Virus record (IMG/VR): IMGVR_UViG_3300036861_001106
Location: 45,531-109,530 of that record
From: a virus
Direction: 5' to 3' (one strand)
DNA length: 64,000 bases
Below, one piece after another: positions 7,766-54,076 of this stretch (position 1 is the stretch's first letter; every line of letters begins with the position of its first letter). Under the pieces are notes generated by a model, which saw nothing but the letters and a program-made list of their open reading frames with translations, ran no database searches and was not told the origin of the DNA. Both the position numbers and the translations under genes were made by a program.

Positions 7766-8739
7766 ATGGCCGCTACCTTTCTCGTGGAACCAGCGTAACG
7801 GAGCGAGCGGCACGGCGACAGACCTCGGATCAAGCGGAAATTTGGCTTCAAGAAGTTGGCCCCTCGCGTAGGAATGCGTGAGTGAAAACGGCGTGAATTG
7901 CGGGAAGCCTACAGCGAAGGCCATGGTAATCCGCAGCCAAGCTCGACAGGGCACTGGTTGTCGAGAAGGTTCAGAGACTAGAGGGTGAGTCCCAACAATA
8001 AGCCCTCCACGAGCGCGCCGCACCCAGATCGGGTGATGAGATAGTCCAAGCATCGGGGAAACCCGGTGAACTAGAACTTCAAGACCACGGACACGACGGG
8101 GATTGGAGATTACGCCGCGAATCCGGTCTCAGCCGGCTCGAACTCAATGGAAGTCGTACTGCGGATGCACTTCACAGGGTCTGCGGCCCCTCCAGCCTGA
8201 AAGGGCTGGTCGTGATGGCGTGAATTCGGGGAAGCCTACAGCGAAAGCCATGGTAATCCCGACCCAAGCTCTCCAGGAATGGTGAGAAGGGCTAGAGACC
8301 AGAGCAAGTAGACGAGACCCGTCGAACGCTCCACGAGCGCGCCACACCCCTCGGGGTGATGAGATGGTCCGACACTCCGTGGAAACGCGGAGAGCCTTGG
8401 ATAAAGAGCCAAGGTGTAACTGGTGCCTTCAACCGCATCGCCGACTTCCGATTCTGGCAATCGACGGCGTTCTCGCCGTCCACCGGCTTGCAGGTCTTCT
8501 GGTCCGGCACGCAGGTCATCTACCTGCAGCCGACCACCGGCACGTCGTCCATCGCCACGTCGTCCATCCCGACGACCGACCCTGGCACGGCGAACGTCAG
8601 CGTGGGTGGCTCCCTGACCGGATGCCTGACGACATCTGGTTTTACGGACCACATCTACCTTCAGCTCAGGACTGCGTCCAACGCTGCGGCAGGTGACACA
8701 TCGCTCGGAACTTTCACGGGCAGCTACACTGAGAACTAA
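7766..8739 (+). CDS. ~166-aa putative virion protein split by two group I introns (exons 7766-7847, 8075-8180, 8426-8739; exon 1 has a +1 frame discontinuity at 7778-7781)
   Basis: SD AGGAGGTG plus ATG; spliced product MAATFSWNQRNGASGTATDLGSSGNLA|NFKTTDTTGIGDYAANPVSAGSNSMEVVLRMHFTG|SFNRIADFRFWQ...YTEN stays in frame across both junctions. Confidence 0.75.
7848..8074 (+). ncRNA. group I intron 1 (227 nt, no ORF)
   Basis: 5' exon ends in U, intron ends in G; IGS GAAGTTGGCC (7852-7861) pairs over 10 nt with ligated junction GGCT|AACTTC including the U.G pair; P7 GACTA/TAGTC; core GAATTGCGGGAA...AATCCGCAGCCAAG. Confidence 0.9.
8181..8425 (+). ncRNA. group I intron 2 (245 nt, no ORF)
   Basis: P1 GGGU/GCCC; core GAATTCGGGGAA...AATCCCGACCCAAG; P7 GACCA/TGGTC; P9 hairpins; terminal G; removal restores the frame (T|CC = Ser). 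Confidence 0.85.
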
Positions 8740-49600: not shown

Positions 49601-50078
49601 CAGGGGCCACGGCACGCGCAGGTGCCCCTTGCAGTCCAGGGGGAACAGGCGCGCGTCGGCGAGCAACTCGTTGAGCCGCCGCAGCTCCCCCGTCAGGCAG
49701 TCCACCCGGTGGGTGCCCCCGGTGGGCCGGTGGCCAATCGTCCCCTTGCTGCGGTAGATCGTGATCACCTCCGCGCCCGGCGGGAGCAGCCGGCGGAGGG
49801 TCATCAGCGCCCGGTCCTGCGCCTCCGCCTCGCACGCCCCGTGCGTTCCTGTGAGCCTCACCTCAGACCTCCTTTTTCACCAGCTCAACCACGCGCCGCG
49901 CCTCACCACTGTGTGCGACCACGCGCTGGGCACTCTCGCGTGTCAAGGTGAACCCCGCACTCCGGTAGGTCCCCAGCGTGCGCCGGAATACTTGGTTGGC
50001 GAACCCCTCGTCGTCGTCCGACCAGGCGCTGATCAGCGTCCCCGTCTCCGCGTCCGTGGTCTGCACCTGCCACCTCAT
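46632..50078 (-). other. array of small hypothetical early genes
   Basis: tightly coupled short ORFs with SD and overlapping stop/start. Confidence 0.6.
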
Positions 50079-51361
50079 TTGTCCTCCCTCTGGAACTTGT
50101 ACTCGTACCCGTCGCACCTATGAACTTTCTTGCAGGCGCGGTGAGTGACTTCAATACTGCCACCTATTTTAAATGACCCAGAGGCCCTGACTGCCACGCG
50201 TCCAACGTGGGTCATTCTGACCTCCTTTCTTGTTACCGTCGCGCTCACGATGTCTCCCGTTTGAAATCCGAAGTGCAGCTTCTTTCGGGTTCGGTGCCTC
50301 GTGGGGAATCCATGCGCGTTCAGGCCGCACATCTGTCGCTTTCCCCACCCTGTGGCCTTGATGCTGAGGGGGCGAATTCCCCTGACTTGAAGCTGTTCCG
50401 GTGTGCTCGCGCCAACGCAGGCTGCATCAAGCCAGTGCTCCTTTGGCAGTCCCAGGCGCGTTCGGTTGAACTTCGTGCGCCCGCCAGTGCCAACTTCAAT
50501 CGGCAGCCCAGTTGCTGTCAGCCGTCGCCACAGGACCCACCGCGTTGCGTTGACTGCCGCCGCGTCCTTGAGTGGGGCCTTCAGCCCGGCGAGGATCTTC
50601 TTCAGGACCTCAGGGTGTCTGGCCAGGAACTCCTCCACTGGCCGGTTGCTCTTGGCCTGGTTGCACGGCCCACACGCGAGGGTGAGGTTCGAGACGCGGT
50701 GCGTGCCGCCTCCATCGCGCGGGCGCACGTGTTCCACCTGGAGCGGGACGTGTTCCGCATTACAGTAGGCGCACCTCCGGCCCCACTTCTCCAGCAAGTA
50801 CTCCCGCACCTCATAGCCAGCCAGCTCACCCTGCTGGTACTCGACTCCTGTCACCTCCGGGTTCTGCAACGCCTGGGTGTCGAAGCGCACCGTCTCCACG
50901 CTTAGTGCGCCAACGGGCGCGAACCGGCACAGGCGGCCCACCCACGTCTCCACGTTGGCCACCCGGCTCTCCAGCGACGGCGGCAGCCAACCCTCCCGTC
51001 GGGTGCGGTTGTCAAAGCGTGGCTTGCGGTAGCGCGTCTTCCGGTTTCGGCGGTTGCGTCGAACTGCGCTTCGTTTCTTCATGCACTTCTCAATGAGCAT
51101 GCCATGGTGCTCGACCTCTGCGGCGAAGATGACGGTCGCTGCCACGTCGTCCACAAGGGCAACCCCTGTGACCTTGCTGCCTGGGTCCAACTTCAGGCGC
51201 AGGGGGCGTGGCGTGGCGTCCACCACCTGTCGCCGCAGGATGATGGTGAAGGGAAAGCGCCGCAGCACGGCCGCTCTTCCCGTGGCCAGCAACTTCCGCG
51301 CCACTGCGGCGTGGCAGGGCGTCAGCGGCTGGCGATCCGCGTTCAGGACAAAAACTCGCAT
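50075..51361 (-). CDS. iscB: IscB RNA-guided endonuclease (428 aa; PLMP, split RuvC, bridge helix, HNH)
   Basis: MRVFVL...PLTPCH, LKLDPGSK (RuvC-I), RRNRRNRKTRYRKPRFDNR, VETVRFD (RuvC-II), CAYC...EHVRP...SNLTLAC..CN..K (HNH), HWLDAACVG (RuvC-III). Confidence 0.95.
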   Translation of the reverse strand: MRVFVLNADRQPLTPCHAAVARKLLATGRAAVLRRFPFTIILRRQVVDATPRPLRLKLDPGSKVTGVALVDDVAATVIFAAEVEHHGMLIEKCMKKRSAVRRNRRNRKTRYRKPRFDNRTRREGWLPPSLESRVANVETWVGRLCRFAPVGALSVETVRFDTQALQNPEVTGVEYQQGELAGYEVREYLLEKWGRRCAYCNAEHVPLQVEHVRPRDGGGTHRVSNLTLACGPCNQAKSNRPVEEFLARHPEVLKKILAGLKAPLKDAAAVNATRWVLWRRLTATGLPIEVGTGGRTKFNRTRLGLPKEHWLDAACVGASTPEQLQVRGIRPLSIKATGWGKRQMCGLNAHGFPTRHRTRKKLHFGFQTGDIVSATVTRKEVRMTHVGRVAVRASGSFKIGGSIEVTHRACKKVHRCDGYEYKFQREDK

Positions 51362-51619
51362 CGCTGCGAACTCCTCTCGCGAGGGTAAGGTTTGCCTCGA
51401 CGATGTTAGCAGGCGGCCGTCTCCCGGACTCACTGTGGCACCCACGTGAACCTCGCTTAAAGCCCGGGTTACAGGGCGGCAGGCTGGCAACGCACCCGCC
51501 GGTGTGAACTTGGGCGCTCTCTGCTAACGTAGCCCGTTGACCGGCTGACGCCGGTCCTGGCTGGGTCTGGTCTGCCAGGGAGCGAGTTAACCTCGCTCCC
51601 ATGCGCGCGTGGGGCAGAC
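51362..51619 (-). ncRNA. omegaRNA scaffold
   Basis: directly upstream of iscB; 5' stem GTCTGCC/GGCAGAC followed by CAGAC, CTACGTT, GGGTGC..GCCAGCC and AACATCGTCGAGGCAAACCTTACC elements typical of omegaRNAs. Confidence 0.85.
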
Positions 51620-51841
51620 GAACCGTGGCCAATGCGCGGGCGGCTGGAACCTCTCGCTCCCATGCGCGCGTGGGGCAGACTTGTCGCGAATGAGGCCGGA
51701 GTGGCGGAACAGCCTGCCTCCCGCGCGCGCGTGGGGCAGACTGGTGGACCCAGCTACGGTCGCCCAACGTCGCCCTGCCTCCCGCGCGTGTGTGGGACAG
51801 ATGACCGGGCCGATGACCTCCCGCGCGTGTGTGGGGCAGAC
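51591..51841 (-). CRISPR. mini CRISPR-like array: five 29-nt repeats, three 32-nt spacers and one 10-nt remnant
   Basis: repeats at 51591, 51652, 51713, 51774, 51813; (-) consensus GTCTGCCCCACRCRCGCRYGGGAG(CG/GC)AGG; period 61, 61, 61, 39. Confidence 0.85.
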
Positions 51842-51842
51842 C

Positions 51843-53434
51843 TCATTGCCCTCGTCCCTTCCACCACGCCATGCAGAACCCCACAATGAGCGCCACGAGC
51901 CAGATGAGCAGGAACAGCCCTAGAGTCCGCGCGTCGATCACTGTGCTGCCCCGGGCCACTCAAAGCTGAATGGCTCAACCGCCTCCCCGGCCATGAACTG
52001 CGCGATCTTCTCCCCTACGGCATCAGGTAGCCGCACGGTGGCCTCACCTTCAATGAAGACTACCAGGCAGCCGACGCTCCTGAACCTCACCCCTGCCGCC
52101 TTGAGTGCCACTGCCACGCAGCAGTGCGTTGTTGCTCGCTCACCCACGGTCAGGGCCTCGCGTGCCTGGGCGATGTGCTCCGCTGTCACCTCAATCCGCA
52201 TCGTCACTTGCCTCCCGCTGTGCCGCCTCAATCTCGTCGGCCAGCCGCTCCCAGTCGAGCGCGCACTTCCGCCAGTCCGCCGCCGCGCGCTCGTGAAACT
52301 CGCGCCACTCTGCCCGGCGCCACCACCGCCGCGCCTGTGCCGCCACCTCATGCTCGCGCACCAGCTCATAGCACCTTGCTGCTTGGGCGCGGAACCACTT
52401 GGTGTCTGCCATTGCCGCCTGGGGGAACATTGCTACTTTCCTGCGCAGCCACTCGTTGTCTGCCATGGTCGCCTCCTGCACCCTCTGTGCCAGTCTGCCG
52501 TTGCTTCCTCACGACGCAGTGTTGTGCCGCTCCGCGACCGCCCAGAAGAGGGCATCGAACTCCACCGGCAGCAGGTCGTCCAGCGGGCAGCCGTCCTCGT
52601 CGACGTTCCGCGCCCCGTTGTGGCTGTCGACGGGCTCGATGCAGATGCTCCAGCCCTGCGCCGTCACCTCCCGCTGGAGGTCCGCCGCGAACTCGCGGAC
52701 GTCGCCAGCCCAGAGCGGACCCAGCATCGCCGCGTCAATCTGGTACGTAATTGGTTCCACGCCGCTACCTCCGGCCTTCTTCCTCACGCCTCCACCTCCC
52801 GCCACCGCCCCTGCGCCACCCGCCGCGCCTGCCGCGCCGCCCGCCGCTCCTGCTGGCGCAGCGTGCGCTCAAACTCGCGCTCTGCCGCCTCCGCTGCCAG
52901 CTCGGCGCGCTGCGCCTTCGCCTCCAGCCACTGCCTCACTGCTCGGTCCATCCCTCTCCTCTTTCCCTACTCGTACGCCGCGCCCCGCGCGTCCAGCTCC
53001 TCCTCACAGTCCGCCTGCTGCGCCTCCCAGCGGTGGACGTCCTCATCGAGGTGCTGCCACTCCTTCAGTCCCTTCGCCGCGAAGGCGCGCTTGATCCGGG
53101 CAATTGCCGCCTGCGCGCGGGCCTCTGTCCAGTAGGCCCGCAGCGCCTCCGTGTCCAGGTCTTGTAGGCTTCTCATTGCGCCTCCGGGTCGACCGTCGTC
53201 TCGATCACCTCGCACCGCACGAGGCGGTACTCTTCCCGCATTGGCGAATTCAACGCGGTTGGGCTCCTCTTCTCCCAGTCACGCCGCTCCTCCACCGCGA
53301 GGTTGTAGCGCGCCCGAGCGAGCTGCTCGTTGGTCGTGCGGGTGCTCCCGCTCACCGGTTCCATCTCCGACCAATCGGTGGCCTGACCGACGAATCGTTT
53401 CTCCACAACGTAAAAAGTCATCACCTCACTCCTC
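51843..53434 (-). other. array of small hypothetical early genes
   Basis: coupled short ORFs. Confidence 0.55.
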
Positions 53435-54076
53435 CTAAACCTGCGCCCCACGCCCGCGGGCGAAGGTGCACGCCTCCTGCCACCCCAGCGCCGTGAAGAT
53501 GCCGCTCTTCGGGCCAAAGTAGCCATTCCCCGGCTCCTCGAAGAACCTGTACCTAACGGCGTGGTCTCCAGGTGACCAAGTAGCGACGTACAAGCCGACT
53601 GCCTTGCATGCTTCTTGAAGTCTTTCCAATCGCGTCTTCTTTCCAGTCATTCGATTTCTTTCCTGTCGCTTCTCGCGTCTTTGTGAGTTTTTGCATTCTC
53701 GGCAGACTCGCCGTCCTCGCTTGTCTTTGGGGCCATAAGGATGCCCGTGAGGACAGTGGGTCTTATTGGCAAGTATTGTAGCCGCACCGTCTTCTTCCTT
53801 GATATGCTCCGCTGCTGTTTTCGGCTCCAGGTGCTCAAAGTTAGCGCAGGCGCGATTTCGACATCGATGATGCAATTGCTGATCCTCCGTTAGAGGCTCA
53901 ACGAAGTGCGCATAAACGACTCTGTGAACAACATGCGCTTTCCTACTCATGCGTGCTTCGCCATACCCGCGCGTGTTTAACCTTGGGTACTCCCAGCATC
54001 CCGTTTCGAGCGCGCTTGGCTCGCAAATCTTCAGGCGCAGGAGGACTTCTCCAATCGTAAGCGTTGGCATCGGCAT
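53435..54076 (-). CDS. HNH endonuclease reading in frame into a downstream small gene
   Basis: CWEY...GYG...HRVVY...HHRCRNRACAN..HL, KTHCPHGHPY...CREC; internal ATG at ~53650. Confidence 0.8.
   Translation of the reverse strand: MPMPTLTIGEVLLRLKICEPSALETGCWEYPRLNTRGYGEARMSRKAHVVHRVVYAHFVEPLTEDQQLHHRCRNRACANFEHLEPKTAAEHIKEEDGAATILANKTHCPHGHPYGPKDKRGRRVCRECKNSQRREKRQERNRMTGKKTRLERLQEACKAVGLYVATWSPGDHAVRYRFFEEPGNGYFGPKSGIFTALGWQEACTFARGRGAQV

Follow-up and report, generated by a model that had tools for sequence, protein, structure and literature searches.

CRISPR-associated IscB nucleases (CRISPR, clusters of regularly interspaced short palindromic repeats) are a described kind of system, IscB being a small relative of Cas9 of the ancestral type. 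In DelIscB, a non-coding RNA ahead of iscB holds the array, the repeat and the anti-repeat (PMC12660989), and that paper cites Altae-Tran 2021 for CRISPR-associated IscB. Other phage CRISPR-IscB loci have been reported, with a rival mobile element or phage as target. Three further kinds of virus-borne system bear on the comparison, namely the Thermus Lalka phages, which carry a TnpB-like Cas12r whose degenerate repeats measure 29 bp and whose spacers measure 31-33 nt, and for which adaptation by the host type I-E system has been proposed (bioRxiv 10.64898/2026.04.20.719267), the mini-CRISPR arrays of viruses (Medvedeva et al. 2019, PMC6858448), and phage Cas9 'biomimicry', in which a phage trans-activating CRISPR RNA (tracrRNA) pairs with host repeats (PMC10910872). 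Here we describe a locus in the IMG/VR virus record IMGVR_UViG_3300036861_001106, where five short repeats run directly into the guide RNA scaffold (omegaRNA, of the obligate mobile element-guided activity or OMEGA systems) of an iscB gene. All coordinates are those of the window, the 64,000-nt stretch analysed, which covers bases 45531-109530 of the 109,530-bp record.

Compared with these systems, the window locus is a CRISPR-associated IscB, a published kind whose basic array-fed design is already known, and it adds one more independent phage-borne instance of that design; its type I-E-like format is the one unusual feature and a testable lead. Like DelIscB, it has an upstream non-coding RNA with array, repeat and anti-repeat followed by the scaffold, and it has no adaptation genes. 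The window copy differs in residing in a complete 109.5-kb phage, in belonging to a clade whose other sampled members are almost all array-less, in having just 4 nt of loop between its last repeat and the anti-repeat, in its 29 + 32-nt format, and in having only two repeats that are fully competent for pairing. With Cas12r it shares a phage-borne, transposon-derived, class 2-type nuclease, a short degenerate array of 29-bp repeats, spacers of about 32 nt and the lack of adaptation genes, and host I-E adaptation has been proposed for both; the Cas12r effector, in contrast, is TnpB-like with its array downstream of the gene, and spacer turnover, integrative-element targets and a host are documented there only. 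Virus-borne mini-CRISPR arrays are likewise short, occur in viruses without cas adaptation genes and are presumed to serve mobile-element conflict, but they use host effectors and host-type repeats, whereas the window virus brings its own effector and carries the repeat within its scaffold RNA (PMC6858448). Canonical IscB of IS200/IS605 elements (OgeuIscB type) belongs to the same protein and HEARO/omegaRNA families and likewise has its guide immediately 5' of the scaffold, whereas the window locus has no TnpA, has an array rather than a transposon flank as its guide region, and is bounded by an 8-bp direct repeat.

On balance, we think it probable that the array, the omegaRNA and iscB form a CRISPR-associated IscB cassette of about 1.77 kb that was inserted as a unit into a phage operon and takes its guides from the array. 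Underlying this reading are the anatomy of the locus, an intact protein, a match to the RNA family, the repeat:anti-repeat pairing, the phage setting, the missing adaptation and transposase genes and the bounds of the cassette. The features, all on the minus strand and in the order in which they would be transcribed, are as follows.

51840..51847, minus strand: direct repeat AATGAGGT, left copy, which holds the stop codon of the 32-aa upstream open reading frame (ORF) and the first two bases of R1
51813..51841, minus strand: repeat R1, 71% identical to R5 and the most degenerate of the five
51812-51803, minus strand: 10-nt spacer stub between R1 and R2
51774..51802, minus strand: repeat R2, 71% identical to R5
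51742..51773, minus strand: spacer 1, 32 nt, with no match in any search made
51713..51741, minus strand: repeat R3, 86% identical to R5
51681..51712, minus strand: spacer 2, 32 nt
51652..51680, minus strand: repeat R4, identical to R5 at 28/28 nt and different at base 29 (A instead of G)
51620..51651, minus strand: spacer 3, 32 nt, immediately 5' of the omegaRNA scaffold
51591..51619, minus strand: repeat R5, which doubles as the initial 29 nt of the omegaRNA
51385..51619, minus strand: omegaRNA, Rfam HEARO RF02033, full length (model 1-211), 91.4 bits against a threshold of 83
51570..51586, minus strand: anti-repeat (9-nt arm, one T, 7-nt arm), after the TTAA loop at 51590-51587
51378-51371, minus strand: iscB ribosome-binding site GAGAGGAG
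50075..51361, minus strand: iscB, 428 aa, RRXRR/RuvC and HNH, catalytic and zinc residues intact
50072..50079, minus strand: direct repeat AATGAGGT, right copy, which restores an ATGA overlap of stop and start codons with the 71-aa ORF that follows
50078-49863, minus strand: downstream 71-aa ORF

Because HEARO model position 1 falls on the first base of R5, R5 constitutes the first 29 nt of the scaffold, which confirms the claim of an initial annotation, made from the sequence alone, that the start of the omegaRNA is also the last of five repeats. The 9-bp and 7-bp pairing that the same annotation had drawn between repeat and anti-repeat was reproduced in the minimum-energy fold of spacer 3 plus omegaRNA, where R5 and the anti-repeat are predicted to pair over 7 bp in an outer helix and over 9 bp in an inner one. 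Rather than being borrowed from a class 1 system, the repeat unit would correspond to the start of the omegaRNA, comprising the 5' side of its outer helix, a small hairpin and the 5' side of its second hairpin. Spacer 3, R5, the TTAA loop, the anti-repeat and the scaffold, which make up the last unit, would amount to a single-guide RNA of natural origin, and earlier scaffold ends may be recorded in the older units.

The gene behind this RNA is intact, as judged from its protein: Pfam RRXRR (7e-69) and HNH (6e-10) domains are both recovered, solved IscB structures are matched (TbaIscB at 4.5e-42, OgeuIscB at 7e-24), and D59, E156, H309, D312, H211, N234, C197, C200, C230 and C233 all occupy invariant columns of an 18-protein alignment. 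From the family motifs, we take D59, E156, H309 and D312 to be the RuvC acidic site, H211 and N234 the HNH residues, and C197, C200, C230 and C233 the zinc ligands. The initial call of an intact iscB with its RuvC and HNH residues is well founded on these grounds. The stop codon of iscB shares bases with the ATG that opens the following gene.

Evaluating the array itself, we found five 29-nt repeats on the minus strand with start-to-start spacings of 39, 61, 61 and 61, so that the three unrelated 32-nt spacers and the 61-nt period first noticed in the letters were recovered together with a 39-nt first spacing and the 10-nt stub. All three spacers are exactly 32 nt long, their mutual likeness is no greater than that of shuffled sequence, and their 3' ends (CA, AA and TC) share no terminal target motif. 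Near-identity is limited to R4 and R5, and repeat identity drops with distance from the omegaRNA, as it does in the array of a second phage described below (L005), which suggests that the newest units adjoin the scaffold in both. A protein-coding repeat was ruled out, a period of 61 nt not being divisible by 3.

Which of these units could serve as guides depends on the anti-repeat. Predicted trans duplexes with it weaken in the order R5 (-28.3 kcal/mol), R4 (-28.1), R3 (-21.8), R1 (-18.1) and R2 (-15.0), and R3 in addition self-folds via CUGCC/GGCAG (-16.4 kcal/mol) and pairs more weakly with the anti-repeat. By these predictions, only R4 and R5 are fully competent for anti-repeat pairing. Spacer 3 is the cis guide of the fused, single-guide-like last unit in the predicted fold, and its 3' part would be the guide most certainly used; spacer 2 is a plausible guide, usable if R4 replaces R5 at the anti-repeat; and spacer 1 is a doubtful one, which together with the stub may represent older, decaying units. 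We propose that IscB, so guided, would cut matching DNA beside a target-adjacent motif (TAM), the target most likely being a rival mobile element or phage. New units would be added at the omegaRNA-proximal end by a fixed-length process that lays down a 28-nt repeat and a 33-nt insert.

To place the repeat in an evolutionary frame, we collected IscB-relative loci from metagenomes (80) and viruses (48; four of the viral matches were partial), mostly at 44-64% identity. The DNA upstream was long enough for scanning in 74 of the metagenomic loci and 41 of the viral ones. The closest IscB proteins are 65-68% identical (P0002-P0025), and the closest with upstream DNA is L013 (64%). In 73 array-less relatives with sufficient upstream DNA the omegaRNA opens in the same way, GTCA and CCCC separated by a few bases and followed by a hairpin, GGGG and CTTG, so the GT...CCCC...GGG look of the window repeat is a property of the omegaRNA family. 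Almost all scanned relatives are array-less. In L013, however, two further copies of its own omegaRNA 5' end lie upstream, with spacings of 33 and 55 nt, one unit being identical to R5 at 23/29 nt and the intervening sequence being different; the HEARO match of L013 begins at base 93. On this alignment the window array is homologous to that of L013. This finding tells against the class-1-repeat/OMEGA hybrid that had been proposed, the repeat being the omegaRNA's own first module and homologous to the one in L013.

Duplications of this general kind recur in the IscB loci examined. In L024, an ordinary IscB locus, the whole 58-nt first module is duplicated with a 99-nt period (L024:1909-2065). 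Two unrelated phage loci carry full arrays in other formats. A phage IscB 40% identical to that of the window, on a 101-kb IMG/VR contig (L005:2264-2639), has a six-unit array of a 37-nt palindromic repeat with a period of 71 (37 + 34). For a viral IscB 46% identical, on a 9-kb IMG/VR contig (L235:1787-2180), the array consists of a 37-nt repeat that recurs five to six times at a period of 74-75 (37 + 37), and its HEARO match (64.5 bits) starts about 88 nt past the last repeat. The L235 repeat ends in ATTGCAAC, reminiscent of the ATTGAAAC-type 3' end that many class 1 repeats have. Together, the arrays and duplications of L013, L024, L005 and L235 indicate that arrays built from the first module of the scaffold arose several times, as far as these loci allow it to be read, and the window IscB clade being otherwise almost array-less, its array association probably arose independently.

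Cultured phages with an IscB at about 51% identity comprise the Ralstonia Adzire group, Nodularia and Microcoleus phages; a repeat scan upstream of iscB found no array in the Adzire and Microcoleus phages, and the Nodularia phage has only about 200 nt upstream. Ralstonia phage Adzire itself (MT740725.1; L246:578-1500) encodes an IscB 51% identical that is annotated as hypothetical or HNH, preceded by a 920-nt gap that holds neither an annotated gene nor repeats, and it could be an experimentally tractable phage IscB. Separately, the IscB gene of L024 is followed downstream by another complete HEARO copy (123 bits; L024:3674-3905).

The bounds of the cassette speak to how it came to the phage. 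The 8-bp direct repeat AATGAGGT stands at both ends of the cassette (51847-50072), and the array begins 2 nt past the stop codon of the 32-aa ORF. Excising the cassette plus one copy of the direct repeat would join the stop of the upstream 32-aa ORF to the ATG of the 71-aa ORF as ATGA, the same kind of overlap as at neighbouring gene junctions. The flanks of L013 and L005 are unlike those of this phage. Given the direct repeats at both ends and these unrelated flanks, array, scaffold and gene probably arrived together as one mobile unit, and the spacers may for that reason predate the arrival. We envisage that the cassette entered a stop/start junction of the phage operon in one step and would be transcribed with that operon, the array most likely being older than its arrival in the phage. 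A search with the upstream-neighbour protein returned no related viral locus, hence no empty insertion site could be shown. The 32-aa ORF is hydrophobic (51941-51843, minus strand) and overlaps its neighbours by GTGA and ATGA, with the cassette sitting exactly at its stop codon.

That the host of this cassette is a phage is clear from the record, a 109,530-bp virus genome with terminal repeats that CheckV rates complete and that has a GC content of 65%. The genes around the cassette are on the minus strand and form part of the phage replication module, which includes a DnaE-like polymerase, primase, helicase, methyltransferases and HNH endonucleases. The polymerase reaches only about 30% identity to those of cultured phages (Microbacterium phages), which is too low for a virus-to-host link. 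The initial statement that cas1, cas2, cas6 and tnpA are missing holds for the whole genome and not merely the window: neither Cas1, Cas2 and Cas6e nor a Y1 transposase TnpA (PF01797) was found in its 109,530 bp.

Several results weigh against an array-fed cassette, or at least against parts of it. Three spacers of exactly 32 nt need a ruler that this explanation leaves unnamed. The sole anti-repeat is fused in cis to R5, such that upstream spacers would need processing or a competing fold, and no second anti-repeat occurs in the phage genome at 0-1 mismatch. No sigma-70-type promoter was found near the array, so expression would rest on read-through. The search for targets, a step the initial annotation had put forward, yielded no protospacer: the whole array had no match by blastn among INPHARED phages, PLSDB plasmids gave only chance-level pieces, the exact 3' 20-mers of each spacer had no match in IMG/VR, and no second copy of a spacer was present in the phage genome at <=6 mismatches. 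With no protospacer in phages, plasmids, IMG/VR or the phage itself, a function against rivals is unproven. Sister loci were not recovered either, the 17-nt repeat core finding three single chance matches in IMG/VR that lack both array and HEARO, and the 22-nt omegaRNA segment shared with L013 finding none.

The unnamed ruler is one ground for the first alternative, which we regard as unlikely, namely that the omegaRNA 5' end evolved into an I-E-compatible repeat and that a host I-E Cas1-Cas2 inserts 33-bp units, so that a class 1 module would write OMEGA guides. Such a mechanism would supply the ruler that identical lengths need, as the exact 29 + 32 format occurs three times. To compare the window array with type I-E arrays, we scanned one GTDB genome per species (185,579 species) for a 23-nt motif to which R1, R3, R4 and R5 conform but R2 does not. 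The motif occurred at 105 places, most of them single and at chance frequency, with about 10 true arrays of 61-nt period (e.g., L111, L157, L115, L118, L137 and L172). Cse1, the I-E marker, was present in 4/5 of the array genomes tested, on the array contig in three and on the chromosome of the array in one. The window array and I-E arrays thus agree in repeat length (29 nt), in spacer length (32 nt) and in the GT-NNN-CCCCAC...GGGA motif, and since the arrays of the same period and motif are Cse1-linked in four of the five genomes tested, the earlier statement that these dimensions and this motif are the I-E signature was correct. The single-copy motif matches appear to be chance or something else; none of the 105 loci has an IscB gene, and these places are not omegaRNAs next to IscB. 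A GC-rich motif of 25 nt, GT-G/C-AGCCCCACGCACGC...GGGAG, recurs in near-identical form and as a single copy in five Gemmatimonadota metagenome-assembled genomes (L095, L113, L142, L161 and L197), with no IscB gene or array nearby.

Further points are in keeping with writing by a host I-E system. In E. coli I-E arrays, base 29 of the repeat enters with the spacer, such that 28 nt are duplicated and 33 nt inserted. R4 and R5 differ solely at base 29, as an I-E insertion would leave them if that E. coli rule applies. The window omegaRNA starts 5 nt before its CCCC, compared with 8 nt in relatives, which brings the window closer to I-E spacing. The phage has no adaptation genes of its own, and the Cas12r of Thermus Lalka phages offers a precedent (bioRxiv 10.64898/2026.04.20.719267).

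Against this stand the origin and the structure of the repeat. It shares homology with the omegaRNA module found in relatives without arrays, the homologous repeat in L013 is spaced at 33 and 55 nt and not 61, and outside the positions fixed by the search motif its identity to I-E repeats is near chance. The strong palindromic stem of I-E repeats is absent: in a Cas6e-type stem test R4 folded at -8.7 kcal/mol (z -0.15) and R1 at -5.8, compared with -17.7 and -15.5 for the I-E repeats of L157 and L111, and neither R4 nor R5 self-folds better than shuffles. I-E-format repeats mostly end in an ACC(G)-like sequence, whereas window repeats end in GCGAGG, GGCAGG or GGTCAT. No AT-rich leader or promoter lies ahead of the array, the I-E cas genes (Cas1, Cas2, Cas6e) were not found in the phage genome, and decay polarity is reversed, the window array degenerating toward its 5' end and I-E arrays the other way. 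A comparison with Rfam CRISPR-DR families carried no information, as genuine I-E control arrays also went unmatched. The array probably came in with the cassette. Searching candidate host arrays for the repeat, which had been suggested as a check, turned up no array with it among the 185,579 species genomes scanned with the 23-nt motif, and the phage and the 105 genome loci, I-E arrays included, shared no convincing match. Of the initial description of the repeats as type I-E-like, then, the format and motif stand, being shared with Cse1-linked arrays, whereas the hairpin, 3' end and leader are lacking and decay runs in reverse. The I-E-like dimensions are real; evidence that guides are written by a host I-E Cas1-Cas2, as had been proposed, is absent, with no host, matching array or protospacer found.

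A second alternative, which we consider improbable, takes the array as debris of an IS200/IS605-type element, that is, stacked left-end remnants with successive flanks, produced by recurrent insertion or gene conversion, in a selfish homing element in which the cis guide alone would matter. R1 sits exactly at the cassette boundary like a left end, the motif at that boundary recurs at the right end, ordinary loci show one-off duplications of the omegaRNA 5' module (L024, L013), and the phage is rich in homing-type elements such as group I introns and HNH genes. On the other hand, the phage has no Y1 transposase, independent insertions would not give three spacers of equal length, the spacers lack a common terminal target motif, and R4 is predicted to be fully able to pair with the anti-repeat. 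Direct repeats at the cassette ends also fit poorly, as IS200/IS605 elements are not known to duplicate their target.

Least credible is a decoy or anti-CRISPR mimic whose I-E-like repeats or anti-repeat would soak up host Cas6e/Cascade or CRISPR RNAs (crRNAs), for although the repeats resemble I-E repeats at the level of the motif and a phage tracrRNA pairing with host repeats gives a precedent (PMC10910872), the IscB catalytic residues are intact, the window repeats lack the hairpin that Cas6e recognises, and real I-E repeats self-fold and do not pair with the window anti-repeat, on which last ground a decoy of host crRNAs was rejected as the principal explanation.

Returning to an array-fed CRISPR-associated IscB cassette as the preferred explanation, we see its interest in the position of such systems, presumed to be a step between transposon OMEGA systems and Cas9, a step that this locus displays plainly in a repeat that is at once array unit and scaffold start. 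As a 1.8-kb object of one protein and one RNA, it is suited to asking whether array units not fused to the scaffold are usable, and whether the adaptation module of another CRISPR class can extend the array. If the latter were true, phages would have a way of keeping arrays current with no integrase of their own. Were the host I-E system to write the array, the phage would own a one-protein nuclease with class 1-written guides, the IscB counterpart of Cas12r, and would offer a living model of a transposon guide RNA first becoming a CRISPR array.

Elsewhere in the window, two features belong to the homing-type elements of this phage. A group I intron lies at 7839-8068 (plus strand; Rfam RF00028, 79.4 bits, full model). 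A free-standing HNH endonuclease gene, one of several homing-type nucleases in the phage, lies at 53435-54076 (minus strand; phrog_826, 3e-30), 1.6 kb upstream of the cassette.

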